64,000 bases of DNA, taken from assembly GCA_964016885.1 (NCBI GenBank), contig OZ024761.1, positions 9,114,001 to 9,178,000 on the forward strand, given 5' to 3'. The translations under genes and the position numbers were made by a program. The notes below the pieces were generated by a model, which ran no database searches, was not told where the DNA came from, and saw nothing but the letters and a program-made list of their open reading frames with translations. Source of the stretch: Eledone cirrhosa. Lineage: Eukaryota. Of this stretch, positions 2,681 through 64,000 are shown piece by piece. The stretch's first letter is position 1. Every line of letters starts with the position of its first letter.

Positions 2681-2683
<3 letters not shown>

Positions 2684-2870
2684 AAGGAATTGGGGTAAGG
2701 AACCAGAAGGACCATAACGCACCAGAGTACTCAATACTTAGGGTAGTAGAGTGGGAAATAGGAAAAAGTATGACCCCCGACGGCAGAGATCAAGCCGTTT
2801 CGACGGCTAATTCTGGACTCAGAAATAGCCGTCGAAACGGCTTGAGCTCTGCCGCCGGGGTCATACTTTT

Positions 2871-2875
<5 letters not shown>
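2681..2875. mobile_element. Family F1 fold-back PLE-type tail carrying only the 3' half of a hammerhead
   Basis: GAAACGGCTTGAGCTCTGCCG.CGGGGTC module on both strands; (TA)n flanks; six further copies in the window. Confidence 0.75.
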
Positions 2876-2917
<42 letters not shown>

Positions 2918-2920
<3 letters not shown>

Positions 2921-3363
2921 GGAGGAGGTTATAGTTCACTTGAAGCATTGTGTAATGAGGTATAAACGTTAGAATATGTGTAATAAGGCCAAGACAATGC
3001 AGATATGGACATAGAAAAAAAAGAATGCAATAGTGAAAGATATTGATGAGAATTCGTCTTTCACCTTGAATTTATTTAAATGTCCTTAATTTTCGAGATA
3101 ATATCTCTTCTTCGGAGGGAAGTAAAAGTCTCAGACCAGCGTCTAAATTTCCAATGAAGCATGGCTTCATTGGAAATTTAGACGCTGGTCTGAGACTTTT
3201 ACTTCCCTCCGAAGAAGAGATATTATCTCGAAAATTAAGGACATTTAAATAAATTCAAGGTGAAAGACGAATTCTCATCAATATCTTTCACTATTGCATT
3301 CTTTTTTTTCTATGTCCATATCTGCATTGTCTTGGCCTTATTACACATATTCTAACGTTTATA
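2918..3363. mobile_element. Fold-back element: ~200-bp arms 2961-3160 / 3164-3363 with a 3-nt loop
   Basis: Arms are reverse complements centred on ccaatgaagc-atg-gcttcattgg; (TA)n flanks. Confidence 0.9.
3206..3240 (+). ncRNA. Minimal hammerhead-like motif with variant core CCGAAGA (mirror copy 3084-3118 on -)
   Basis: cct-CCGAAGA-a-gagat/att/atctc-GAAA-atta-agg; short 3-bp stem I, palindromic stem III. Confidence 0.5.
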
Positions 3364-3372
3364 TATATATAA

Positions 3373-4240
<868 letters not shown>

Positions 4241-4368
4241 CGGTTATATTTAATTTGTTGGGATTCAACAACCTTAAAAATTTTCATAACTGATATAAAG
4301 CACTCAACAGAATAGTGCAGTAAATATACAATATTAATAAATGGAAACTATATTTATTTTACCATAAT

Positions 4369-4434
4369 TATTTTATTATATATATTTCAAGGACGACCAA
4401 GGTAAATTTTGGTGCGCTTTCATCAGATAAAATA
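4369..4434 (-). ncRNA. Type I hammerhead ribozyme (family F2)
   Basis: tattttat-CTGATGA-aagcgcacca..tggtcgtcctt-GAAA-tatata-TA-ataaaata. Confidence 0.85.
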
Positions 4435-4516
4435 CAAATTTGTTTTATAAATAGATATCAACCGTTAAGGTTGTCTTTATGCGGGTATGTCAATATCTAT
4501 TTATAAAACAAATTTG

Positions 4517-4582
4517 TATTTTATCTGATGAAAGCGCACCAAAATTTGCCTTGGTTGCCCTTGAAATATATATAATAAAATA
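4517..4582 (+). ncRNA. Type I hammerhead ribozyme (family F2), mirror arm of fold-back 4330-4622
   Basis: 8-bp stem I tattttat/ataaaata, CTGATGA at 4525, GAAA at 4563. Confidence 0.85.
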
Positions 4583-4625
4583 ATTATGGTTTTATAAATA
4601 TAGTTTCTATTTATTAATATATTGT

Positions 4626-4703
<78 letters not shown>

Positions 4704-5651: not shown

Positions 5652-5734
<83 letters not shown>

Positions 5735-5759
5735 GAAAGTGAACACAATATATACCTAC

Positions 5760-5825
5760 TCCATTACCAGAGGTTTCAGGACCTGAGACAATATCAACAT
5801 ACGTCTAGTTCACTCATCAGACAGA
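5760..5825 (-). ncRNA. Type I hammerhead ribozyme
   Basis: tctgt-CTGATGA-(agac/gtct stem)-GAAA-cc-tct-gg-TA-atgga. Confidence 0.65.
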
Positions 5826-5942
5826 TAAGTTATGAATATATTATATATATTCATATATATTGTGTTGTTCACTTTCTAATTAAATAGCTCTGTTTTATAC
5901 ATAGAGCACTCTTTTTTCCTCTGCTTTTTCTTCGGAAATACT

Positions 5943-6049
<107 letters not shown>

Positions 6050-6196
6050 TATATTAAGTTGTTAAACAATGTTCGATGATTATGTCAAAGAATGAGTTTT
6101 ACAGTAGATTGGAAGCACTCAACGGTAAAATAATTTTCAGGAGTTATTAATATTAAAATATAAGTATTAATAAAATAGATGTTCTTTTGATCAATT

Positions 6197-6253
6197 ACAT
6201 TTTATTATACATATTTCGGATGTACAACTGTACGTCCTCATCAGACAAAATAT
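6197..6253 (-). ncRNA. Type I hammerhead ribozyme (family F3, fold-back ~6150-6430)
   Basis: attttgt-CTGATGA-ggacgtac/agtt/gtacatcc-GAAA-tatgta-TA-ataaaat. Confidence 0.85.
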
Positions 6254-6312
6254 AATGATAGATGACGTACCCTGAGAACCATATCACATCTAAGGGTACG
6301 TCATGTATCATT

Positions 6313-6369
6313 ATATTTTGTCTGATGAGGACGTTCTGTTGTACATCCGAAATATGTATAATAAAATGT
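6313..6369 (+). ncRNA. Type I hammerhead ribozyme (family F3, mirror arm)
   Basis: CTGATGA at 6322, GAAA at 6349, stem I attttgt/ataaaat. Confidence 0.8.
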
Positions 6370-6427
6370 AATTGATCAAAAGAACATCTATTTTATTAAT
6401 ACTTATATTTTAATATATTTTAATATA

Positions 6428-6497
<70 letters not shown>

Positions 6498-6500
<3 letters not shown>

Positions 6501-6680
6501 CGAAGGAAGTGTGGTAAGGAATCAGGTGGACCATAGCACAACGCAACATAGTACTCGATACTATAGGCAGTAGAGTGGGTAACAGGAAAAGAGTCAGGAC
6601 CACGACGGCTGAACTCCGAACGCAGAGATAGCTGTCGAAACGGCTGGAGCTCAGCCGTCGGGGTCCTGACTCTTTTCCTG
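6498..6680. mobile_element. Family F1 fold-back (diverged subfamily, also at 38424-38589)
   Basis: GAAACGGCTGGAGCTCAGCCGTCGGGGTC plus an inverted partner. Confidence 0.7.
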
Positions 6681-6819
6681 TATATATATATATATGCAAA
6701 AGGCAAACCATACAATACAAACCACAATGAAGACATATATTATTAGTTTTACGCTTGATATTGTAGTCTTAATATTAGTCCTTCATCATAAAAAATATAT
6801 TTTTACATATATATATTTA

Positions 6820-6864
<45 letters not shown>

Positions 6865-6867
<3 letters not shown>

Positions 6868-7064
6868 AACAAGTAAGACCCCGACGGCTGAGCTCAAGCC
6901 GTTTCGACGGCTAATTCTGGAATTAGCCGTCCAGAATTAGCCGTCGAAACGGCTTGAGCTCAGCCGTCGGGGTCTTACTTGTTCCTATTACCCACTCTAC
7001 TACCCTAAGTATTGAGTACTTTGGTGCGTTATGGTCCACCTGGTTCCTTACCACATTTCCTTCG

Positions 7065-7067
<3 letters not shown>
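6865..7067. mobile_element. Family F1 fold-back
   Basis: Inverted arms 6865-6921 / 6930-6987 followed by the F1 tail; (TA)n on both sides. Confidence 0.8.
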
Positions 7068-7098
<31 letters not shown>

Positions 7099-7179
7099 GT
7101 TATTCCGGGTTGAATCGGAGGTAACCACAGTAAGTAAGGTACTCAATACATAGCAGAGTATAACAGTTTTAATATAGAT

Positions 7180-7232
7180 GAGATTCTACAGGACTAGAAC
7201 TGTTTCATTCATTAGAAATCATCAGGAATCTC
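7180..7232 (-). ncRNA. Type I hammerhead ribozyme (family F4) within element 7097-7232
   Basis: gagattc-CTGATGA-tttctaatgaat-GAAA-cag..ctg-TA-gaatctc; 7-bp stem I. Confidence 0.85.
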
Positions 7233-7282
7233 TATATATATATATATATAGGTAAATATATATATGTATATATATAAAAATA

Positions 7283-8760: not shown

Positions 8761-9753
8761 AAACTTTCTTTTTATTTGCCACCAGTGCGTCAAAGAGTGG
8801 GACAAGTACAATGGGGGGGGGGGTGGGTGGGGGTGGGGGGGGGGGTGGAGTTTACATAAAAAGGCGTCCTCAATAAGGAGGAGGCAATAACAAAATATAA
8901 AAATATAAAAATATAAAATATAACAAAATCCTCAATAGAGAGGAGGCGCCTTGGGGGTCGCACAGATGCCCGAAAAAGTGTACAACCCTTTTCCTCAGGT
9001 GCACAGAGAGAGGGTGCTCCCTTGATCTTTCATCTTTCTCACCTACAGTCTGATGTAGAGTGAAGGCCCATTCACACGGTCCATTCTCGCCACTTTCACC
9101 CACCTTTCATAAAAACGACTGGGGTGCAGCACCTCTCTCTCCATCCTGATCCTTCTTCCGAAATGATATCGGAAGAAACGGACCAGTTATTGGCCAGAGA
9201 GAAAGGTGCCTGACCTCAGTCCTTTCAGACGCGTCCACCATACAACCTCTTTCGCCATGGCTATTACGCACAGAAACACCGCCTCTCCTTCGTTTTTGAA
9301 GAGGGGCGGCGGCTTGATCGTTACAATAGACTCGGTGGTCAACCAGATCGGTCCCACCCGTGACAGCAGTCGTTCGACATAGCCCCACAGATCGGCAATG
9401 CCCGAACAGTGTACCAATGCGTATGCAACGGTTTCCTCGTTGCACACGCATCTAGGACAGATCTTTTTCGAGGGGTCCCTACCCGGACGCCCGTGTCTGT
9501 AGAGCTTTTCTCGAACGTGCAGAGCCCCTCGGTAGCACTGCCAGGCCAGGGACCTCTGGAAGTTATCCATAGGTCCCGGGCTGAATGTCCTACCGAACAG
9601 GTTTGCCAGTTCGTTTTCCTCCATGCCTAGGGCTTCTCCGAGGGCGTCGTCGCACCTGCTAACCACCAGCCCTCTATAGAATGACGAGGTGGATTCTCCA
9701 CTGACAGCCGGGTCCGCCTGCCAGAGGGCCGTGAGCGCCTGGGCACACTCGGT
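8761..9753 (-). mobile_element. 5'-truncated L1/Tx1-type LINE (ORF2 C-terminus plus 3' UTR)
   Basis: Translation CPRCVCNEETVAYALVHC...KEVVWWTR is homologous to the ORF2 at 59650-63069; aataaa near 3' end. Confidence 0.9.
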
Positions 9754-9830
9754 AGATAGATAGATATATACATACATACATACATATAATATACACATAT
9801 ACATGTATATTGATACACATACATATATAT

Positions 9831-9906
<76 letters not shown>

Positions 9907-13470: not shown

Positions 13471-13876
13471 TATACATATATATATGTATATATACTTATG
13501 CATATACATATATACATATACATATGTATATATATACATATATATATACATCTACACATATATATATACATACACATATATATATATACATACACATATA
13601 TATATATACATATACATATATATATATACATATATATACATATATATATATATGTATATATACATACATATATATATATATGTATATATACATATATAGA
13701 TACATATATATATATATATATTGTTATACTTTGGGAGGGTCATGTTGCCAATAAGAAACACACGCACCAGTTGCTTTCACTTCAATTTAATTTATTATAT
13801 ATTTATAAATTTACAAATTTATAAATTTCTGGTTGGTTGGTTGGTTCCACAACCAGATATTTGTTTATATATATAT

Positions 13877-13921
13877 AGTCATAGTTCTTTCGTCACACAC
13901 TCTGTGACCTCTTCAGTGACT
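13877..13921 (-). ncRNA. Type I hammerhead ribozyme (F5)
   Basis: Mirror of 14031-14075. Confidence 0.85.
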
Positions 13922-14030
13922 GGGGATTTCTTTCTTCGTTTCTGTGCCTTTCCTTTCTTCTATCCTACGCCAAACAAAATGGCGTAGGATAGAAGAAAGG
14001 AAAGGCACAGAAACGAAGAAAGAAATCCCC

Positions 14031-14075
14031 AGTCACTGAAGAGGTCACAGAGTGTGTGACGAAAGAACTATGACT
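14031..14075 (+). ncRNA. Type I hammerhead ribozyme (F5)
   Basis: agtca-CTGAAGA-g-gtcaca/gagtg/tgtgac-GAAA-gaac-TA-tgact. Confidence 0.85.
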
Positions 14076-14290
14076 ATATATATATAAACAAATATCTGGT
14101 TGTGGAACCAACCAACCAACCAGAAATTTATAAATTTGTAAATTTATAAATATATAATAAATTAAATTGAAGTGAAAGCAACTGGTGCGTGTGTTTCTTA
14201 TTGGCAACATGACCCTCCCAAAGTATAACAATATCGGTTTCAACACACGATTTCAGATAAAGAATCTTGCTAAACAAATTCAGAAACGAA

Positions 14291-14323
<33 letters not shown>

Positions 14324-18896: not shown

Positions 18897-18956
<60 letters not shown>

Positions 18957-18961
<5 letters not shown>

Positions 18962-19097
18962 AAGTTTAACCCCGACGGCAGAGCTCAAGCCGTTTAGACG
19001 GCCATTTCTGGACTAAATTATCCACTCTACTACCCTAAGTATTGAGTACTCTGGTGCGTTATGGCCCATCAGGTTCCTTACCACATTGCCTTTGTTA
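18957..19097. mobile_element. Family F1 copy with inverted segment and internal deletion
   Basis: accccgacggcagagctcaagccgttt..ctggactaaatt joined to tccactctactaccctaagtattgagtact. Confidence 0.75.
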
Positions 19098-28910: not shown

Positions 28911-28954
<44 letters not shown>

Positions 28955-29002
28955 TGAGATTCTACAGGACTAGAACTGTTTCATTCTTTAGAAATCATCA
29001 GG

Positions 29003-29051
29003 GATTCCTGATGATTTCTAAAGAATGAAACAGTTCTAGTCCTGTAGAATC
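29003..29051 (+). ncRNA. Type I hammerhead ribozyme (F4) in fold-back 28950-29136; mirror copy 28958-29006 has a disrupted stem I
   Basis: gattc-CTGATGA-tttctaaagaat-GAAA-cagttctagtcctg-TA-gaatc. Confidence 0.85.
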
Positions 29052-29134
29052 TCATCTATATTAAAACTTTTATACTCTGCAATGTATTGAGTACCTTACT
29101 TACTGTGGTTACCTCCGATTCAACCCGGAATAAC

Positions 29135-29177
<43 letters not shown>

Positions 29178-29379: not shown

Positions 29380-29380
<1 letters not shown>

Positions 29381-29584
29381 GGAAAAAGTATGACCCCGAC
29401 GGCAGAGCTCAAGACATTTCAACGGCTATTTCTTGACTAAATTTAGTCCAGAAATAGCCGTCGAAACGGCTTGAGCTCTGCCGTCGGGGTCATACTTTTT
29501 CCTATTTCCCACTCTACTACCCTAAGTATTGAGTACTCTGGTGCGTTATGGTCCACCTGGTTCCTTACCACAATTCCTTCGTTA
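29380..29584. mobile_element. Family F1 fold-back
   Basis: Centre gactaaatttagtc; half-hammerhead GAAA at 29463, GTC ending at 29485. Confidence 0.8.
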
Positions 29585-30720: not shown

Positions 30721-31539
30721 ATAACACATAAACATTTTCCACCAAACCACAGCTACCACCAAATATTTAACAGGTATACTGTTAAATTCTCATACTCTAC
30801 ATCAAACAATCTCCAGCAAAAAGTAAGCAACTACAACATTTATAAATTTAAAAATAATATGACCACACCACCACAACATAATTTAAATAGGACTGCACCT
30901 TTTAAAAGGACATAATACAATCCTTCAACCTGGAAAACACAACCACCCAAATCACCAACACAAAAACAACATCACACAAAATCACAATACAACCCTAGCA
31001 CTAAACCACCCACAAAGCAGCATTCATTCTCTCGCTAACATTAATTACAATAAGAGTAGCTCAATGATTAATGAGAAGTATGTAGGTACCTCCAACAACC
31101 ATCTTACGTATGGTTTTAATTGCAGAAATAGAAGCGTTTGCCCCTTAAATGGCAACTGTTTGATTAATACTGTAATATATAAATGCATTGTGTCTACTAC
31201 AGACTCCAACAAAACATATATAGGATCTACATCAATACATTTAAGAAAAGATATTACGCACACCCTAGTAGTTTTAACAATACTAAACTAGCTAACACCA
31301 CATCTTTAGCTGAAGCAGTAAATAACTATAAAAAGAAAAAAATAGATTTCAAGCTATCGTGGAACACCATTCTACAAAGAACTCCATATCTTGGGAACAG
31401 GAGAGAATGCAGGTTATGTACCGGGGAGATCTTGGAAATTACTAAATCTAAGGACGATTTATTGAATAAAAGACAGGAACTGATTATAGCTTGTAATCAC
31501 CGTATACGAAAAACATTTAAGTACTATAAACCTAATTAA
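30721..31539 (+). pseudogene. Penelope-like element (Naiad-type) linker plus GIY-YIG endonuclease, frameshifted
   Basis: KHFPPNHSYHQIFNRYTVKFSYS; NCRNRSVCPLNGNCL..VIYKC..KTYIGST; FKKRY..H.SSF; CRLC..E; LLNKRQELIIACNH. Confidence 0.88.
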
Positions 31540-32589
31540 ATATTCTAAATAGCAACTCACTATAATTGTATGTAGCGTAACATTTGTTAGTATCCTCTTC
31601 CCCTAATTATACGCCTTCCTGCTTATTTTTTAATTTTTAACCTTTTAATTTTTTAACTTTCATAGATTCATGCGTTACTGACTAAGGGCACCAAGGTACA
31701 TAACCGCCTGTAATTGCATGGGTATACATGTATCTATGTATGTATGTTATGAGAATATATATATATATGTGTATATATATATATGTGTGTATATGTGTAT
31801 GTACATGTATGTGTGTGTACATATATATATGTATGTATAAGTGTGTATATATATATATGTATGTTTGTGTGCGCGTATGTATATGTATGTATATGTTTAT
31901 ATCTATGTATGCATATGTATGTTTTTAATGGAGTATCAATATAATTATACCTCTATCTATAATGTGAGTATATGCACTTTGTGACCTATGAAAATTATGC
32001 GTTTTGACTATGTCAACATGCATTTATCTGAGTTTAATTACTTATACATAGACACACTTGAAAATATTTACTATTTTATATTTTATGATGCATCATACAC
32101 TATATTCAATCTACTATACCGTACTATAATATATTACACTATATTATATTATTATATTATTATATTTTATTATCTTATTATAATTTTCATCTTTTAATAT
32201 ACTATCCTTCCTAGTTATGACTATTACTTTACCTATCTATATTTATCCTAATTATCTCTGTATATTTTATATTTACTTATTTATATTCACATAAAAATTC
32301 CATACAACACAACTCAACATTTAATTTTTACATTCCTTTTTAAACTTCACTCCACCATCTACATTCAACTATCAATATAACAATACCTTTTTCCTCATAG
32401 GTTCTTTATAGTAATTCTATTTTTAGCACCATTCAACCATTCCTTTCAAAGGGTCATGACTTCAACTAAAGTGAATTATTTTTCATATTAACATCATATG
32501 GGAAAAAAACAATTTGATTGGTTTATTCTTCAGCTACCTCCAAATAAGGTCATAGTACTCAATTTACTATTGCTTTTGAATAAAATTCT

Positions 32590-37437: not shown

Positions 37438-37840
37438 GTTCGTTTCTGAATTTGTTTAGCAAGATTCTTTATCTGAAAACGTGTGTTGAAACCGATATTG
37501 TTATACTTTGGGAGGGTCATGTTGCCAATAAGAAACACACGCACCAGTTGCTTTCACACACCAGTTGTGTTCACACACAAAAACAAGATGGCGTAGACAG
37601 AACAAAGGAGGGGCACAAAATAAAGAAAAGAATCCCCAGTCACTGAAGAGGTCACAGAATGTCTGACGAAAGAACTTTGACAATATATGAACAACCGTCC
37701 GGTTGTGGAACCAACCAACCAACCAACCGGAAATTTATAAAGTTTTAAATTTATAATTTAATTTATAATAAATTGGAGTGAAATCAACTTGTGCGTGTGT
37801 TTCTTATTGGCAACATGACCCTCCCAAAGCATAACAATAC
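37438..37840. mobile_element. Family F5 head-to-head insertion with hammerhead at 37638-37682 (+)
   Basis: agtca-CTGAAGA-ggtcacagaatgtctgac-GAAA-gaac-TT-tgac; inverted tail 37438-37557. Confidence 0.85.
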
Positions 37841-37878
<38 letters not shown>

Positions 37879-38150: not shown

Positions 38151-38199
38151 GCTTCTACAGGTCTAGCACTGTTTCATTCGGGAGAAATCATCAGGAAGA
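38151..38199 (-). ncRNA. Type I hammerhead ribozyme (F4-related)
   Basis: cttc-CTGATGA-tttctcccgaat-GAAA-cagtgctagacctg-TA-gaag. Confidence 0.8.
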
Positions 38200-38423: not shown

Positions 38424-38426
<3 letters not shown>

Positions 38427-38585
38427 CAAAGAAGGTACTCGATACTTAGTGTAGTAGAGTGGGTAATAGGAAAAGAGTCAGGACCCCAACGGCTGAGCTT
38501 CGGCCGTTTCCACAGCTAGATCCGAACAGTTCGGATATAGCTGTTGAAACGGCCGGAGCTCAGCCGTCGGGGTCCTGATTCTTTT

Positions 38586-38589
<4 letters not shown>
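38424..38589. mobile_element. Family F1 fold-back (diverged subfamily)
   Basis: Centre atccgaac-a-gttcggat; GAAAcggc..gccgTC-ggggtc. Confidence 0.75.
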
Positions 38590-38652
<63 letters not shown>

Positions 38653-40694: not shown

Positions 40695-40699
<5 letters not shown>

Positions 40700-40938
40700 T
40701 TGTTAAACAATATTCAATGATTATGTTAAAGAATGAGTTTTACAGAAGATTGGAAGCACTCAACGGAAAAAATTTTCTGGTGTTATTAATATTAAAATAT
40801 AAGTATTAATAAAATAGATGTTCTTTTGATAAATTACATTTTATTATACATATTTCGGATGTACAACAGTACGCCCTCCGAAATATGTATAATAAAATGT
40901 AATTGATCAAAAGAACATCTATTTTATTAATACTTATA

Positions 40939-40946
<8 letters not shown>
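40695..40946. mobile_element. Family F3 fold-back turning at HHR stem II (CTGATGA lost)
   Basis: tttc-ggatgtac-aaca-gtacgccc-tcc-gaaa; homologous to 6053-6430. Confidence 0.85.
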
Positions 40947-41745: not shown

Positions 41746-41748
<3 letters not shown>

Positions 41749-41935
41749 AACCAGTAAGACCCCGACAGCTGAGCTCAAGCCGTTTCGACGGCTAATTCTG
41801 TCCAGAATTAGCCGTCGAAACGGCTTGAGCTCAGCTGTCGGGGTCTTACTGGTTCCTATTACCCACTCTACTACCTCAAGTATTGAGTACTTTGGTGCGT
41901 TATGGTCCACCTGGTTCCTTACCACATTTCCTTCG

Positions 41936-41938
<3 letters not shown>
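41746..41938. mobile_element. Family F1 fold-back
   Basis: Arms centred on aattctg-tc-cagaatt. Confidence 0.8.
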
Positions 41939-41988
<50 letters not shown>

Positions 41989-42119
41989 GAGGTTATATTT
42001 AAGTTGTTGGGATACAACAAGCTAAAATATTTTTATAACTGATATAAAGCACTCAACAAATTATTGGAGTAAATATTCAATATATTAACAAATGAAAATT
42101 ATATTTATAAAACCATATT

Positions 42120-42184
42120 TATTTCATTATACATATTTCAAGGGCCACCAAGGCAGATTATGGTGCGCTTTCATCAGATAAATA
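42120..42184 (-). ncRNA. Type I hammerhead (F2) in element 41986-42250
   Basis: CTGATGA-aagcgcacca..tggtggccctt-GAAA-tatgta-TA-atgaaat. Confidence 0.8.
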
Positions 42185-42555
42185 ATAATACAGATTAGTT
42201 TTATAAATAAATATTGACATACCCTGAAAAAGTGCAACTATCAAGGAAGCTCCAGGATAGGAGGTGGTGTGGCGGTGTGGTGGTGGTGGTGGAGGATGTG
42301 GTGTGGTGGTGGTGGTGGTGGTGGTGTGGTGGTGGAGGATGTGGTGTGGTGGTGGTGGTGGTGGTGTGGTGGTGGTGTGGTGGTGTGGTGGTGTGGTGGT
42401 GGAGGAGGTGGTGTGGTGGTGTGGTGGTGGTGTGGTGGTGGTGTGCTGGAGGAGGTGGTTAGGGTTGGAGCCGGGTCTAACAGCGGGAAGATAATTAAAG
42501 TTGTAAAAGCTGGCGGAAAACTTTACAACAGCAGGAACAAAGTGGAGTGAAGCGA

Positions 42556-45000: not shown

Positions 45001-46512
45001 TTTCTTTTATTTGCCACCATGGCATCAAAAGTGGGACAAGTACAATGGGGGGAGTTTACAAAACAAGGCGTCCTCAATAAGGAGGAGGCAATAACAATAT
45101 ATAAAAATAAAATAAAATATAACAAAAAATAAAATTTATAACAAAGTCCTCAATAGAGAGGAGGCGCCTTGGGGGGTCGCACACACCCCCCCGATAAAAG
45201 TGTGCAACCCTTCTCCTCAGGAGCACAGAGAAGGGGTGCTCCCTTGGTCTTTCATCTTCCTCACCTATAGTCTGATGTAGAGTGAAGGCCCATTCACACG
45301 GGCCATTCTCGCCACTTTCACCCATCTTTCATAGAAACGGCTGGGGTGCAGCACCTCTCTCTCCATCTTGATCCTTCTTCCGAAATGATATCGGAAGAAA
45401 CGGATCAGTTGTTGGCCAGAGAGAAAGGTGTCTGACCTCAGTCCTTTCAGACGCGTCCACCATACAACCTCTTTCGCCATGGCTATTACGCACAGAAACA
45501 CCGCCTCTCCTTCGTTTTTGAAGAGGGGAGGCGGCTTGATCGTTACAATAGACTCGGTGGTCAACCGGATTGGTCCCACCCTTGACAGCAGTTGTTCGAC
45601 ATAGCCCCACAGATCGGCAATGCCCGAGCAGTGTACCAATGCGTGTGCAACGGTTTCCTCGTTGCACACGCATCTGGGACAGATCTTTTTCGAGGGGTCC
45701 CTACCCGGGCGCCCGTGTCTGTAGAGCCTTTCTCGAACGGGCAGAGCCCTTCTGTAGCATTGCCAGGCCAGGGACCTCTGGAAGCTATCCATGGGTCCCG
45801 GGCTGAATGTCCTACCGAACAGGTTGGCCAGTTCGTCTTCCTCCATGCCTAGGGGCTTCTCCGAGGGCGTCGTCGCACCTGCTAACAACCAGCCCTCTAT
45901 AGAATGACGAGGTGGATTCTCCACTGACAGCCGGGTCCGCCTGCCAGAGAGCCGTGAGTGCCTGGGCACACTCGGTGTGCCAGGCGCCCAGTTTTCTCGG
46001 TCTTTGCTTGACCCAGGATTGCAGCTCGGTGAGTGAGACGAGTCTGGGAAAGGCTCGCCTCACAAACGGGGCCCACACCGGTTGACCGGAGAGGAATACC
46101 TGAAGGTGCCGTAGCCTTAATGCGTGTTTACGTATCATTAGCCACGGCATCCCCAGCCCTCCTTTCGAAGGGTGTTGACAGCAGATGGACCTCCTCACCA
46201 TAGGAGCCCGCTTCTTCCAAAGGAATTGGAAGAGTGCGCGCTCCATTTTGGCGAGCGTTTCCCTTGGGCAAGGCACAACGGTCAGGCGGTAGTAGATGAC
46301 GGACGCTATATAAGTGTTCGCCACCTCCGCCCGTCCTTTCAGGGACAGTTTGCACTCGGCCCACTTCTGGGTCAGTGCAAACACCCTGTTCGTCACCTCA
46401 CCCCAGTTCTTCTCCACCTGGAGGTCTGGTCCGAACCAGACCCCGAGCAACTTCACCGGGCCCTCCGTCCAGCGCCCGACGACGCCATCGGAGGGCATCG
46501 ATCTGCCCCTCA
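45001..46512 (-). pseudogene. L1/Tx1 ORF2 3' third (frameshift near 45850) plus 3' UTR
   Basis: KLLGVWFGPDLQVEKNW..LSLKGRAEVAN..KGGLG; same family as 8761-9753. Confidence 0.92.
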
Positions 46513-47690
46513 ATCTCGAACAAAAGTAAAAAGCCAGCTCAACCATCACAGAGTGAGATAGAGCTGGTTTTAAAAGACGTCATGAAGGACATCACCTTCA
46601 TTCAGAAGGATAGACTCTACGGGAGTCTATCCATTCTCATGAAGGACAGGGACACAGCAGTGAAACTGTCCATCAAACCAATCACATCCACCGCATACAC
46701 CTTCTACCCTACGTACATGGGTAGAAGAACACAAAAAATAAAAATCCACACCATCCTGCCGATTATGGACATATGGTGGGTTTTGACAGGTTTCCTGGAC
46801 CTGGAGGATGACATGCTGGTGTCCATGGGAAAGGCATCGGGTGACGCGTTCAGTGGAACGAGCCTCGAACTTGTAGTTCAAATGAGGCCCGAAAGGATCG
46901 CCCAGATCCCTGAACGCGTCATACTGGATGATCTATCCTTCATCAACATTACCGTTAAGGGTAGACGGCCCTCGTGTTACCTCTGCGGAACCAGAGGTCA
47001 CCTGAGGGCTGTCTGTCCCCAACTTAATAAGAAAACCCCAATCCTGCCTACACCACCAACAACTGCACAACCAACACAATCCCCACAACTACCACTACAA
47101 AAACAACCACCACAGCTCAAACCAAAACAAAACAATGTCCAACCCATCCCCTCCACGCAAAAAACAAAAACAATTTCCAAAACACCCGCACCGCAAACAC
47201 AACCCGAAAATATACCCCTCCCCTCCAACGCGGAAGATGACCCTAGTTCGTCGTCAGACGAGGAGGAGCACTTCCACACAATCAAAAGAAAAAAAAGAAA
47301 ACACACCTCAGACACACAAATGAAAACAACCCCTCCCCAAAACATAACACTGACACCAACACAAAAGAGCTCACAACAACAGCAAACAAAAAACACCACA
47401 CAAAAACAAAAACATGCATACACATACATAAACACAAGAAACAAAAAAACTGTTAAACATTGTGTACAACAACAATCTAATAAAAACACAAGGGCCTAAC
47501 TTCACCCAGGCAGGGGATTTCCCCCACCTCAAAATGATTAAGGCCCCACAGGACACCTATAAAACTTTAAAAAACAATTTTAAAGAGGACGTGGGTCCCC
47601 CCTGCGTCGGGCCCATTAACCGCGTCCTCCTAAAAAACTACCCCACCCCCTCCCCAAACACCCACACAACTCCAAGCTCCCCAACCACAC
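46513..47690 (+). pseudogene. L1/Tx1 ORF1 fragment in opposite orientation (CCHC knuckle; frameshift near 47460)
   Basis: CYLCGTRGHLRAVC; C-terminal YKTLKNNFKEDVGPP..LLKNYP aligns with YKEIRKSFPRDVGTP..LLKGFP of the ORF1 ending at 63099. Confidence 0.85.
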
Positions 47691-50501: not shown

Positions 50502-50789
50502 TGTACATATATATATATATACATATATGCACATATATATTCATATATATATATCTGGTTAGCATTTATTTTTTATCATTTATTTTGTTTTGACCTGTTT
50601 AGCTTGATTTGGTTTTGGGCTTGGGGTTAATGCCTTCTTGACCACCTTTTCAGTTTTGTATGGCTTCTTAACACATTGTTTAGCTCTGGTTTTTAACTAT
50701 TGAGCACTTTGCCAGTATCATTTCTGGTTTTTGCGTTTCGCTTTGCTTTTCCTGCCCACCGAAAATGCGATTCGCGCTGAATCTTTATT

Positions 50790-59649: not shown

Positions 59650-62600
59650 CTACAGGCGCATGATCAGAGTAGGCCCACTCACGCGGGCCATTCTCGCCAC
59701 ATTCACCCACCTTTCAGTAAATGTACTGGGGGGCAGCACTTCTCTCTCCACCCTCACCTTCCTTTCCAAGTGAAACTTGAAGAAGTTGATGAGGGATTGG
59801 CCGAAGAGAAAAGTGTCTGTCTTCAGTCCTTTCAACCTGGTCCACCATGCAACCTCTTTCGCTACTGCCACCAGGCAGAGGAAAATTGCCTGCCCTTCCT
59901 GACCAAAAGAAGGCGGCGGGTCAATCTTCACTATGGACTCGGACGATAGCCGGATCCGTTCTACACGCGACAATAGCTGTTCGACATAACCCCACAAGTC
60001 AGCAATGCACGGACACTGGACGAGTGCGTGCAGAACGGTTTCGTCGCTCTGCGCGCATCTCGGGCAGGTTCGTCTGACAGCACTTCCGTGCCTGTAGAGT
60101 TTATCCCGAACCGGCAGCGCCCCCCGGTAGCACTGCCAAGCGAGGGATTTCTGGAAGTTATCCATCGTCCCCGGCTCGAAAGTCCTCCGGAACATACTGG
60201 TCAGTTCTACTTCGTTGACGCCCAGAGCCTCTCCTAGTACGTCATCGCACTTGCCCTCCACTAATCCTCTATAGAAATCTTGAGTGGAAGTTCCACTGAC
60301 CGCATTGCCCACCTTGCAGAGTGCAGTGAGCGCCTGGCAACATTCCAGATGCCAGTCGCCCAGTCTCGGTCTCTTCTTGACCCAGGACTGCAGCTCAGTC
60401 AAAGAGATGAGCTGCGGAAAGGCCCGTCTAACAAACGGCGACCACACCTGTTCACCGTTTAGGCAAAATATCTGGAGATGTCGCAGCCTCAGCGCATGTC
60501 TGCGCATCATTAGCCACGGCATGCCCAGCCCTCCACGAAGAGGGTGCTGGCAGCAGATGGACCGCCTCACCAACGGGACCCGTCCCCTCCACAAAAATTT
60601 GAAAAGGAGCCGTTCCAAATTGGCGAGGCGTGGACGGGGGCAAGGCACGACGGTCAGGCGGTAGTAGATGACGGACGCGATGTACGCGTTCGCCACCTCC
60701 GCCCGCCCTTTCAGTGATAGCTTTCTCTCAGCCCATTTCTGGGTGAGGTTGGCTATCCTGCTCGTCACCTCGTCCCAATTCTTATCCACCTGGAGGTCTG
60801 GTCCGAACCAAACCCCGAGCAACTTTACCGGTCCGTCTGTCCAGCGCCCAACGACGCTGTTGGACGGCATGGACTTGCCTCTCCAGGTGCCGAGCTGCAA
60901 GCCCACCGACTTTTCCGGGTTAAGTTTTGCTCCCGTCAACCTTTCATATTCCTCCAAATGGGTGCGGATCACCTCGATTTCCGAGGTGTCCGACACCATC
61001 ACGGTGATGTCGTCCGCATAAGCGGACGCAGCCTTTCTGCGTCCCGGTTCGAGCGGGATGCCCTGCAACAACTCCAGCTTCCGCAGTAGAGGCTCAAGAG
61101 TCAATACGTACAGAAGTGAGGAGAGAGGGCACCCTTGACGGACCGATCGAGAGATCTGAAACGGTTCCGAGAGGTGGCCATTAACTTTGACCACCGAGCA
61201 GATGCCGCTGTACATTGCAGCGATCCAGCTTCTGAAGACGGGGCCGAAGCCAGCCGCCTCGAGGACAGCCTCCAAGTACCGATGGTCGACCCTATCGAAT
61301 GCTTTCGATTGATCTAAATTGATCAGAGCCCCACCGAAGCCAGGTTTGCACCCAACCCTCTCTATGATGTATCGCATGAGGTGGAGGTTGTCGTGTATGG
61401 ACCTGGTCGGGATTGCGCAAGTTTGCGCCTCCCCAACCAAATCTTTGACGACAAGCGCCAACCTTTTCGCTAACACCTTGGCCAAAATCTTAAACTCTGT
61501 GTTGAGCAGGGTTATGGGCCTGAAATTATCTAGTGTGTCCCTCTTGTTCTCGTCTTTCCTTATCAGCGTCACTACGCCACGGCTCACAGAACTGGGAATG
61601 CTCCCGTTCTGCTGCCAGTTGCAGTAGAGCGCTTCGAGGAGATCGGAGAACAAGTCTGGCATATTTACGTAAAGCTCGTAGGGCAGACCATCCAAACCGG
61701 GTGACTTGCGACTCGAGCAGCCGACAAGGGCGTCCTGAATTTCGACTGATGTTATCGGCTCTTCGCAGCGCTCAGCGTCGGCCGTCGAGAGGCGTGGCAA
61801 GCCGTCGAGGTAGGGACTGAAGTCCGCCGCCGTCTCCGACTCACCCATCCTCCCGAACAATCGAGCAAAGTGCTGGCGAAAGGCCTCACACATCTGCTTG
61901 GAATCGCTCAGTTCGTGTCCATCTCGATCCGTCAAAGACCGAATTGTGGTTTTATTTCCACGCTGCGTCTCTGCAAAGCGAGCCCATCGGGCAGCTTTGG
62001 TTCCCTCGTTCCTCAGAGCACGCGCCTTAGCTCTGACAATGCAACCTTCGTGTTTCGCATTGAAGAAATGGTCTAGTGCCATTCTCGCCGCTAGCACGTC
62101 TGTTGCAATGCCACTACAAATAGCCTCGTCTAACTTAGCTATCAGCCCCTCCTCCTTTCTATTTTTCTCTATTGCTACTTCTTTGCTAAATCCTATCGAG
62201 GTTGCTCTAATCTCTCTTTTGAGAGCCCCCCACCACCTGTTGTTGACAACCCCCCCTGTCAACTTTTTCTTAACTAAGTTGTTGACCCGGTCCCTGTAAG
62301 CTTTACGTGCCGGAAACGACATGTTTAGCTTCCAGTAGCTAGGTCCTAACCTACGTGTCTTATCTAGGTCGACCATACAGATCACAAGCTTGTGATCTGA
62401 ATAGGCAACCGTTTTAAAATGTGGACATCCTACACTATTTCTATCTCTTTTCCTAATGAAAATCCTATCTATGTACGATCTAGATGACCCTATGCGATTG
62501 GTCCAGGTCCATACTGGCGCATTAGGGAAATCTAGTCGGTACCTGTCAGACAGTTGAAACTGGCTGATCAGGTACTTGAGGCTTTTGCACCCCCCGCTCC

Positions 62601-63069
62601 TATCAGATACTCCCACACAATCCCAGCGTGCTTCTAAGATGCCATTCCAATCCCCTATTAACAGTAAAGGGCGAGACGTAAGCAGAAAGTTTTCCAGGCG
62701 CCTAAAGAAGTCCGGCCGACCGGCCCCAGTAGGGGCGTAGACGGCCACCAGTCTAAAGGCACCACCTTCGCTATTGCTCACGTCCAGGACCACCAACTTT
62801 CCGTCAGGATCCCGGAAGATTGACCTTACCTCGAGATCCAGACATTTCCTAAACAGCACAGCCACTCCACCTCCCATTCCCGGCCGACTAACAGATGCAA
62901 AGATCTGATAATCGTCGAAAATCGGCGCCAGTGCGCGTGTGTCGGAAATTCTGGTCTCGCTGATGGCAATTACATCCATTCCTAGTGACCTGAGGTCGTT
63001 GAGCAAGTGACCTTGCTTCCAGGGCGACCCCAGGCCACGAACATTTAAACTTCCTACTCTTATGGCCAT
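59650..63069 (-). CDS. LINE ORF2p: AP endonuclease, reverse transcriptase, C-terminal Cys/His domain (1139 aa)
   Basis: LNVRG, ISET, YAP, GDWN, IDRIF, SDH; KSPGLDG, FRPITLLN, KAFDRV, RQGCPLS, YADD; CPRC..ETVLHALVQC. Confidence 0.96.
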   Translation of the reverse strand: MAIRVGSLNVRGLGSPWKQGHLLNDLRSLGMDVIAISETRISDTRALAPIFDDYQIFASVSRPGMGGGVAVLFRKCLDLEVRSIFRDPDGKLVVLDVSNSEGGAFRLVAVYAPTGAGRPDFFRRLENFLLTSRPLLLIGDWNGILEARWDCVGVSDRSGGCKSLKYLISQFQLSDRYRLDFPNAPVWTWTNRIGSSRSYIDRIFIRKRDRNSVGCPHFKTVAYSDHKLVICMVDLDKTRRLGPSYWKLNMSFPARKAYRDRVNNLVKKKLTGGVVNNRWWGALKREIRATSIGFSKEVAIEKNRKEEGLIAKLDEAICSGIATDVLAARMALDHFFNAKHEGCIVRAKARALRNEGTKAARWARFAETQRGNKTTIRSLTDRDGHELSDSKQMCEAFRQHFARLFGRMGESETAADFSPYLDGLPRLSTADAERCEEPITSVEIQDALVGCSSRKSPGLDGLPYELYVNMPDLFSDLLEALYCNWQQNGSIPSSVSRGVVTLIRKDENKRDTLDNFRPITLLNTEFKILAKVLAKRLALVVKDLVGEAQTCAIPTRSIHDNLHLMRYIIERVGCKPGFGGALINLDQSKAFDRVDHRYLEAVLEAAGFGPVFRSWIAAMYSGICSVVKVNGHLSEPFQISRSVRQGCPLSSLLYVLTLEPLLRKLELLQGIPLEPGRRKAASAYADDITVMVSDTSEIEVIRTHLEEYERLTGAKLNPEKSVGLQLGTWRGKSMPSNSVVGRWTDGPVKLLGVWFGPDLQVDKNWDEVTSRIANLTQKWAERKLSLKGRAEVANAYIASVIYYRLTVVPCPRPRLANLERLLFKFLWRGRVPLVRRSICCQHPLRGGLGMPWLMMRRHALRLRHLQIFCLNGEQVWSPFVRRAFPQLISLTELQSWVKKRPRLGDWHLECCQALTALCKVGNAVSGTSTQDFYRGLVEGKCDDVLGEALGVNEVELTSMFRRTFEPGTMDNFQKSLAWQCYRGALPVRDKLYRHGSAVRRTCPRCAQSDETVLHALVQCPCIADLWGYVEQLLSRVERIRLSSESIVKIDPPPSFGQEGQAIFLCLVAVAKEVAWWTRLKGLKTDTFLFGQSLINFFKFHLERKVRVEREVLPPSTFTERWVNVARMARVSGPTLIMRL

Positions 63070-63098
63070 GCTGGCAGGATGAATGGGAGAGGAAAGGT

Positions 63099-64000
63099 TT
63101 ACTTACCTTCCGGGGTCTTGTGAAGGTCGGGTGGTTCGACCTCCATGGTTTGTGGGGTTTCTTTTGGGAACCCCTTTAATAGTCTTGACGTGGGTTTTAC
63201 GTTCGGGGTTCCCACATCCCGAGGAAAGCTCTTTCGAATTTCTTTGTATGAAACGAGCGACATTCGCATCAGAAGCAAATTATCTGGTGCGCGAAATGTG
63301 CTCGCTTCAAATGTTTCCCCCTCTTTTTCGATGTTTGTGCTTCGTGCTACATGGGCCATCAATTCCTTGTTGGCCCTTCTGGCAAGCACGAAGTTTTTAA
63401 TGTTTTGTTGCTCGGGTTTTATTTGTTCGTGTGATTGTGGTGGTGATAGCTTTGTTAGTGTTGTTTCTATTGTGTCTGCGTTTGTTGTGGGTGGGGTGTC
63501 TGTAGTTTCTGATGTTTGTGTGTCTATTTGTTCTTGTGTCTGTTTAGCTTGTTTGCGTTTGGGGGATTTTGGTGGTTGTGTTGGTGATGCTGTGGGGAAA
63601 ATGTTTGTGTGGGTGGTGTGTGTATTTTTTTTTGTGGGGGTGTTTGTGCTTTGTGGATTTCTTTTTTTTTTGTGTTTTGTTTTTTGTATTTTGGGGGACT
63701 TTGGTTTTCCCTCATCTTCACTGCTGGAGGATGAGGGGTCTGTGGCTGTGAGCGTGTTTGTGTCTGAGTGAGTGTTTATGTTCTTGTTCGTGTGTGTATT
63801 TTGGAGGGGAGGGGGAATGGGAGAGCTTTCCTCGTTTCCCCCCTGGGTGTGCAATTTTGGTGGTTCCATTGTTGACGGTGTTGCTGGTGGTCCTTGTCCC
63901 GGCGTCGCCAGCAGTGGAATCTTTCGACCCCTTGCGCTTTTCGGCAGTTGAGGGCAGAAGGCTCGCAAGTGTGTCGTTTCCCCACAAAGGAAACAATGCG
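63099..64000 (-). CDS. LINE ORF1p C-terminal part (5' end outside the window)
   Basis: Frame is open to the window edge: HCFLCGETTHLRAFCP (CX2CX4HX4C) followed by a low-complexity region. Confidence 0.88.
   Translation of the reverse strand, partial: HCFLCGETTHLRAFCPQLPKSARGRKIPLLATPGQGPPATPSTMEPPKLHTQGGNEESSPIPPPLQNTHTNKNINTHSDTNTLTATDPSSSSSEDEGKPKSPKIQKTKHKKKRNPQSTNTPTKKNTHTTHTNIFPTASPTQPPKSPKRKQAKQTQEQIDTQTSETTDTPPTTNADTIETTLTKLSPPQSHEQIKPEQQNIKNFVLARRANKELMAHVARSTNIEKEGETFEASTFRAPDNLLLMRMSLVSYKEIRKSFPRDVGTPNVKPTSRLLKGFPKETPQTMEVEPPDLHKTPEGK

Follow-up and report, generated by a model that had tools for sequence, protein, structure and literature searches.

Seven short palindromic repeats of one family, F1, among them the copy at 6865, raise the question of why a repeat should carry only half of a hammerhead ribozyme (HHR). 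The sequence-only reading of the window (the whole 64-kb stretch of Eledone cirrhosa DNA analysed here) had offered two answers: repeated, independent snap-back products of a full Penelope-type element (PLE), or a self-propagating hairpin of about 200 bp whose RNA could be cleaved in trans by the missing strand. We consider it probable that each F1 copy is a short, two-armed end piece of a longer repeat with a long stem II, likely inserted by a Hydra-clade Penelope RT/endonuclease, and that the CUGANGA strand was likely left uncopied.

All seven copies were verified at the starts claimed for them (2681, 6498, 6865, about 18957, 29380, 38424 and 41746):

6865..7067, plus strand: F1 copy, subfamily A; inverted arm 6865-6920, centre 6921-6928, main arm 6929-6988, tail 6989-7067.
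41746..41938, plus strand: F1 copy, subfamily A; arm identity 53/53 nt.
29380..29584, plus strand: F1 copy, subfamily C; centre at the 4-nt palindrome AATT of the longer form (29440-29443).
2681..2876, minus strand: F1 copy, subfamily C.
18955..19097, plus strand: F1 copy, subfamily C; inverted arm fused straight to the tail, no main arm, GAAA mutated.
38424..38590, minus strand: F1 copy, subfamily B; tail deletion of about 37 nt.
6498..6682, minus strand: F1 copy, subfamily B; main-arm deletion of about 22 nt, GAAA gone from the main arm.

Once co-oriented, the copies read inverted arm, centre, main arm and tail; the inverted arm is present in 7/7 and only copy 18957 is without a main arm. 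Each is a single truncated end of 140-205 bp with (TA)n on both flanks (7/7 in the 64-kb window), inserted on the plus strand in four cases and on the minus strand in three. The tail of about 80 nt is found at one end only and is shortened to 43 nt in one copy with a deletion. No tandem F1 unit was found within the window, and no ORF (RT plus GIY-YIG) in any copy. Arm mismatches bear out the existence of at least three subfamilies, A (6865, 41746), C (29380, 2681, 18957) and B (38424, 6498). There are 0/53 mismatches within 6865, 0/53 within 41746 and 2/53 between these two copies, and the two arms of one copy are nearly always each other's nearest relatives. The difference in arm orientation that had been ascribed to the subfamilies disappears, as the layout is the same in 7/7 and only the insertion strand varies. 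Centres do differ, but not by subfamily: each of the seven copies has its own.

F1 is a newly found family of truncated PLE-type two-armed insertions, which are themselves of a known kind. No published description of it was found in the literature searched, with most subscription papers and the repeat databases outside its coverage. F1 motifs were absent from the accessible parts of the supplements of PMC8557442 (where line wrapping can hide short words), PMC13282606 (apart from its repeat library) and PMC8967140. Exact F1 patterns had no match in metagenome contigs, viral contigs or prokaryote genomes. Among the Rfam matches listed (the best 150 of 398, and 72 of 72 in a second search) none reached the gathering score; the sub-threshold matches are headed by miRNA families, and the sole hammerhead match among those listed is weak (E 0.31) and lies over a neighbouring copy of another family, F2. 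F1-like elements could be misfiled as SINEs, MITEs or miRNA-like hairpins.

The ribozyme half is seen best in the copy at 6865:

6946..6974, plus strand: 3' half of a type I hammerhead; GAAA 6946-6949, 6-bp stem III 6949-6967, GUC 6966-6968.

Its stem III loop contains the palindrome GAGCTC, and the stem I 3' strand is predicted at 6969-6974. Such a half had been claimed for the whole family; with GAAA, an A15.1-U16.1 stem III and NUH it is present in 9/13 arms, representing 6/7 copies. The claim fails for the remaining four arms. The single arm of copy 18957 has TAAA in place of GAAA, and in copy 6498 the half-motif is retained by the inverted arm alone. Scanning the window for GAAA, a stem III of at least 5 bp and U-H gave 12 matches, nine of them inside F1 arms, and 21/5000 dinucleotide shuffles of one 139-nt arm plus tail contain the half-motif by chance. 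The absence of CUGANGA is confirmed, exact CTGANGA being found in 0/7 copies on both strands; five matches with one mismatch overlap GAAA, loop III or the tail and are not separate cores. F1 copies are predicted to be catalytically dead. A scrambled or permuted hammerhead (type II, SGC-like) was considered and rejected, as there is no CUGANGA downstream of the cleavage site or in the tail on either strand.

Three other families of the window permit a comparison of full and half hammerheads:

7097..7237, minus strand: F2 comparison copy; complete type I hammerhead motif, F1-type tail hairpin.
28950..29137, plus strand: F2 comparison copy of F1 layout (104-bp palindrome plus 79-nt tail); complete hammerhead motif in both arms.
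40696..40943, minus strand: control, truncated half-hammerhead copy; full-hammerhead relative at 6055-6432.
3925..4157, minus strand: control, fold-back inside stem II, no CUGAUGA; full-core relatives at 4238-4628 and 41986-42240.

F2 arms are similar in length to those of F1, and the compact F2 hammerhead fits within the arm. In the copy at 40696-40943 the main arm begins inside the core and the inverted arm just before GAAA, while its relative at 6055-6432 has CTGATGA in both arms. Since two other families include both full and truncated half copies, half ribozymes arise here through plain truncation, and the F1 half is most likely an ordinary 5'-truncation product. Two further observations concern these families. 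Loop III of F2 holds a CTAG palindrome, with a related core at 38164-38194 (minus strand), and the region 3846-4157 is a composite: in addition to the stem II fold-back, another palindrome (3846-3997) surrounds the tail end, as though two copies had been joined tail to tail.

Longer, non-palindromic F1 forms were looked for in eight of 18 listed public runs, with two F1 copies as references. The family is abundant there, with matches in 19,801 X1 contigs and 24,337 of 12.47 million X16 RAD reads; these are not copy numbers, and contig depth was not taken as copy number either. The loose-end tables hold the best-supported rows, with 458 and 160 further loose ends beyond those listed. Before 6929, the loose ends of 109 X1 contigs (agreement 0.49) agree with the single X5 contig, whose loose end is 94 nt long. 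With the reference 29380-29512, two of the four X6 contigs, of 212 and 166 nt, carry 129 and 125 loose nt which match nothing anywhere on the reference and are therefore not an inverted arm. The visible 30 letters of both start with CGGCTATTT, the exact complement of 29452-29460, expected by chance at about 1e-4 per 30-mer. The X2 consensus of 38 contigs reads GGCTATTT in the same register, or (C)GGCTATTT in the fuller reading. The stem II strand predicted upstream of GAAA is thus present in the longer forms. It makes a 9-bp stem that closes 2 nt before GAAA and encloses a 33-nt insert with an inner helix, so the longer form has a long stem II. Subfamily B has its own homologous upstream stretch, obtained from 1513 X16 RAD reads at an agreement of 0.76, which may rest on few loci.

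In the longer forms the sequence can be read back to 53 nt before GAAA, the point where the 5' strand of stem II begins. Neither CUGANGA nor the stem I 5' strand was seen in any F1 form, as judged from the seven copies and from the longer forms up to these 53 nt. One contig has seven letters between its two arms that complete CTGATGA; this is one of six entries listed, was noticed post hoc and is a weak hint. Within the window 0/7 copies are long, the upstream sequence of the longer forms does not occur, and three shorter motifs gave two unrelated matches. The reads also show the class to which copy 18957 belongs (333 reads with tail-like loose ends at 29445). A contig of run X7 has an F1 arm, then different sequence past the cleavage site, then the tail hairpin again, and is a further diverged F1 subfamily. 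RAD read ends pile up at 6935 and 29440, but both positions fall at AATT and are likely restriction cuts, so these peaks were not taken as a biological signal.

The tail of the copy at 6865 holds a hairpin:

6994..7017, plus strand: Hydra-type tail hairpin (ACTC / inner stem / 2-nt bulge / GAGT).

This hairpin is located 5 nt beyond the fixed end of the inverted arm. Among the best-supported loose ends listed from public reads and contigs, the commonest one behind 6988 and 29505 is (TA)n, which indicates that the inverted arm has a fixed outer end. With a strict descriptor of the hairpin 11 matches are obtained (7 F1, 2 F2, 2 others), where the null model gives 0.04 on average; relaxing the descriptor raises the count to 15, while the null averages 0.8 and never exceeds 3. 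As the descriptor was built from F1 and F2, independent support comes only from the other matches and from two published Hydra tails. These are the consensus sequences of Hydra-2_Amil and Hydra-2_Ajap, the two Hydra sequences compared, in which an F1-like tail hairpin follows the hammerhead, with G-C as the outer pair there (read by eye). A lone tail hairpin at 50683-50707 (plus strand) has no hammerhead core within 220 nt upstream, and a TA run follows 86 nt on.

EN+ PLEs are described in the accessible text of PMC8557442 as leaving an inverted 5'-truncated copy with the tail at one end, the Hydra clade preferring (TA)n. F1 shares the (TA)n target (7/7), the inverted 5'-truncated copy (7/7), the one-sided tail and the 3' position of the hammerhead. 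Of the canonical terminal hammerhead the 3' half and, in the longer forms, stem II are seen, and the sequence stops short of the core. Compared with the EN+ PLEs as far as that source presents them, the F1 tail is longer (about 80 nt against 30-40 nt), the copies are without an ORF, and stem III is more substantial (5-6 bp with a loop of 7-9 nt, whereas the Hydra rows of its File S2 have short stems and 1-3-nt loops). No coding element that ends like F1 came to light. At 31080-31539 (plus strand) there is a frameshifted GIY-YIG-like remnant, Hydra-2_Ajap-like by eye, and nothing ties it to F1; a possibly decayed hammerhead follows near 31680-31725 (plus strand, region 31080-31730), and Pfam gave no match for the two GIY-YIG-like ORF pieces.

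The surroundings are rich in comparable insertions. Among 73 islands surveyed between TA runs, at least 18 have inverted arms, and in many the tail remains at one end. A loose scan for CTGANGA followed by GAAA gave 26 matches in the window, several of them as outward-facing pairs. Such hammerhead pairs are located at 4426/4525, 6244/6322, 13916/14036 and 29001/29008.

We now return to how the preferred reading would work. The enzyme would bind the tail hairpin on the parent RNA and cut (TA)n. A first cDNA would start at the tail end; a second, primed on the opposite side of the break, would start about 80 nt upstream of that point. Both would stall 13-23 nt upstream of GAAA, within the 3' strand of the long stem II, and the stalled cDNAs would be joined head to head, often via microhomologies. 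The core would always be lost because the stem II 5' strand begins 53 nt upstream of GAAA and the core would lie further still. In this scheme we infer the enzyme, the two-sided priming, the stall, an intact parental CUGANGA and a non-coding retrozyme as the parent. The nearest precedent is Poseidon PAc of Anolis (Frangieh et al. 2024, PMC11167929), whose RT, according to the accessible part of that paper, elongates the two target strands, initiates at two sites inside the RNA that delimit the tail, uses AT-rich targets and can do without hammerhead cleavage in vitro. Poseidon PAc is, however, a coding element of another PLE clade, and head-to-head joining of cDNAs is absent from that account as far as it was accessible.

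Of the two answers offered at the outset, independent fold-back products of a longer Penelope-type element are the better supported, through the longer forms and the unique junctions, while a full coding PLE as the parent is not favoured. A non-coding retrozyme appears more likely, because the stable stems of F1 resemble retrozyme hammerheads more than the minimal Hydra ones. Animal non-LTR retrozymes, in the accessible texts of Cervera and de la Pena 2020 (PMC7229834) and Li, Clavereau and Pollet 2026 (bioRxiv 10.64898/2026.07.22.740005), are non-coding, carry a type I hammerhead with stable stems and are proposed to be mobilised by PLE enzymes. They are described there as monomers of about 300 bp that include the full HHR and are arranged in tandem, whereas F1 copies are single ends without the catalytic core.

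Several other explanations have to be weighed against truncation of a longer hammerhead-bearing repeat. The half could be one partner of a split ribozyme, F1 transcripts being substrate strands cut in trans by an enzyme strand made elsewhere. The substrate half is indeed complete in 9/13 arms, and there is precedent in the cis/trans Schistosoma SINE hammerheads and the bipartite mammalian hammerhead (PMC6765202, accessible part). Yet a transcript through the whole copy is predicted to fold as one long duplex (-132.2 kcal/mol, z -17.9), in which the pairing probability is about 1 for GAA, C17 and the stem I strand but about 0 for stem III, against 0.47-0.83 for stem III in an isolated arm. With the half-motif locked in a predicted duplex of about 57 bp, the proposed trans-cleavage of F1 RNA is not supported. 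Moreover, the motif is lost from 4/13 arms, truncation yields identical halves in the control families, and no enzyme strand was found in the window (no exact or one-mismatch case among the 14 matches listed, none in a second scan). We regard a split ribozyme as very unlikely indeed; the half being most likely an ordinary truncation product, nothing here argues for a split or trans-acting ribozyme. Still more remote is a cut-and-paste or fold-back DNA element (MITE-like) targeting TA. It would account for short, high-copy palindromes in TA repeats but not for an inverted repeat that is not terminal, one terminus being the unique 80-nt tail, nor for variable centres, longer one-armed forms in the reads and a tail hairpin common to HHR-bearing PLE ends, and it is largely refuted.

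It is also conceivable, though distinctly improbable, that the parent was mobilised by a PLE but was not, or was no longer, a hammerhead, with CUGANGA absent or decayed and GAAA being the loop of an AGCCGT/ACGGCT hairpin. That hairpin is the predicted minimum-energy fold of a subfamily C arm, the uppermost pair of stem III is disrupted by a frequent variant at 6962 (about 30% in X1), and the 53 nt visible upstream of GAAA contain no core. On the other hand, the 9-bp stem 2 nt before GAAA, the 5-6-bp stem III, its palindromic loop and U-H all stand in the exact hammerhead register. Long stem II domains with cores exist in the window (36964, 5820, 38037), and the one contig whose extra letters complete CTGATGA gives a weak hint in the same direction.

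The most serious competitor concerns the place at which the arms end. The 13 arms extend 13-23 nt upstream of GAAA, and 5/6 main arms start 17-18 nt before it, in A/C and B alike (both split by eye). The helix at this stop zone is weak and AU-rich. Palindromes of other families in the window span 104-395 bp, and random truncation is no explanation for so narrow a zone. The AATT centre of 29380 and a short re-copied piece included in the centre of 6865 would fit microhomology joining. In public reads the centre lengths form a ladder of several length classes among those listed. Some junction classes reach a summed depth of 2900 and 1747 in only two contigs, whereas each single long contig listed has a depth of about 7-22; this points to junction classes common to many genomic copies. 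Contig depth left of the 29380 centre is below 1% of the arm peak, a figure that Illumina hairpin loss may lower. Two F1 copies carry deletions, and unique centres can also come from later deletion in unstable palindromes.

A self-propagating micro-element could produce such a zone. Transcripts of short palindromes born by truncation would be put back into the genome by the PLE enzyme and would have their stop at the hairpin tip, so that the fold-back point would ratchet in a narrow zone without a long parent. All window copies are short (7/7), a short copy retains both ends and the tail hairpin, and the sharp stop, the shared junction classes and the dispensability of HHR cleavage in vitro are consistent with this. 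However, the junctions differ in 7/7, there is one longer form for A/C and another for B, so that distinct parent lineages show the stop zone, a promoter-like part is absent from every copy, and the 29380-type centre remains below 1% of arm depth, with the same reservation about hairpin loss. These junctions speak against the strict form of a self-propagating hairpin of about 200 bp, for which unique junctions had been set in advance as the refuting outcome. Its general form is unlikely but keeps more weight than the other alternatives, because the narrow stop zone is unexplained. If it did hold, the ribozyme-dead hairpin would be a micro-parasite of Hydra-type Penelope enzymes for which about 140 nt (arm plus tail hairpin) suffice, the stop at -17/-18 in two diverged subfamilies would mark a defined RNA 5' end or an RT block, and the many junctions would be natural footprints of two-sided priming.

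F1 is abundant and very short, both of its ends are fixed and it folds back within a narrow zone, so that it offers a minimal candidate template of about 140 nt. Such a template could be used to test at which points the RT of a Hydra-clade Penelope begins and halts, and by what route the inverted 5' copy of a PLE arises, a task left open by Craig et al. 2021 in the accessible part of that paper.

The window holds further palindromes and repeats. A 395-bp palindrome with a 47-nt tail at 2918-3359 has a hammerhead-like core, CCGAAGA, in both arms, and a near-perfect long palindrome at 13721-14292 has a hammerhead motif in each arm and a related one-armed copy at 37496-37841. The insertion at 5731-5945 is asymmetric: its inverted arm includes a whole hammerhead, while the tail-bearing arm covers only about 30 nt before the tail hairpin. 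At 59650-63102 (minus strand) an open L1/Tx1-type ORF of 1150 aa (endonuclease, RT, zf-RVT) is found, with related fragments at 45265-46579 and 9187-9873, and from 52653 there is a tandem array of about 175 units with a period of 26 bp.
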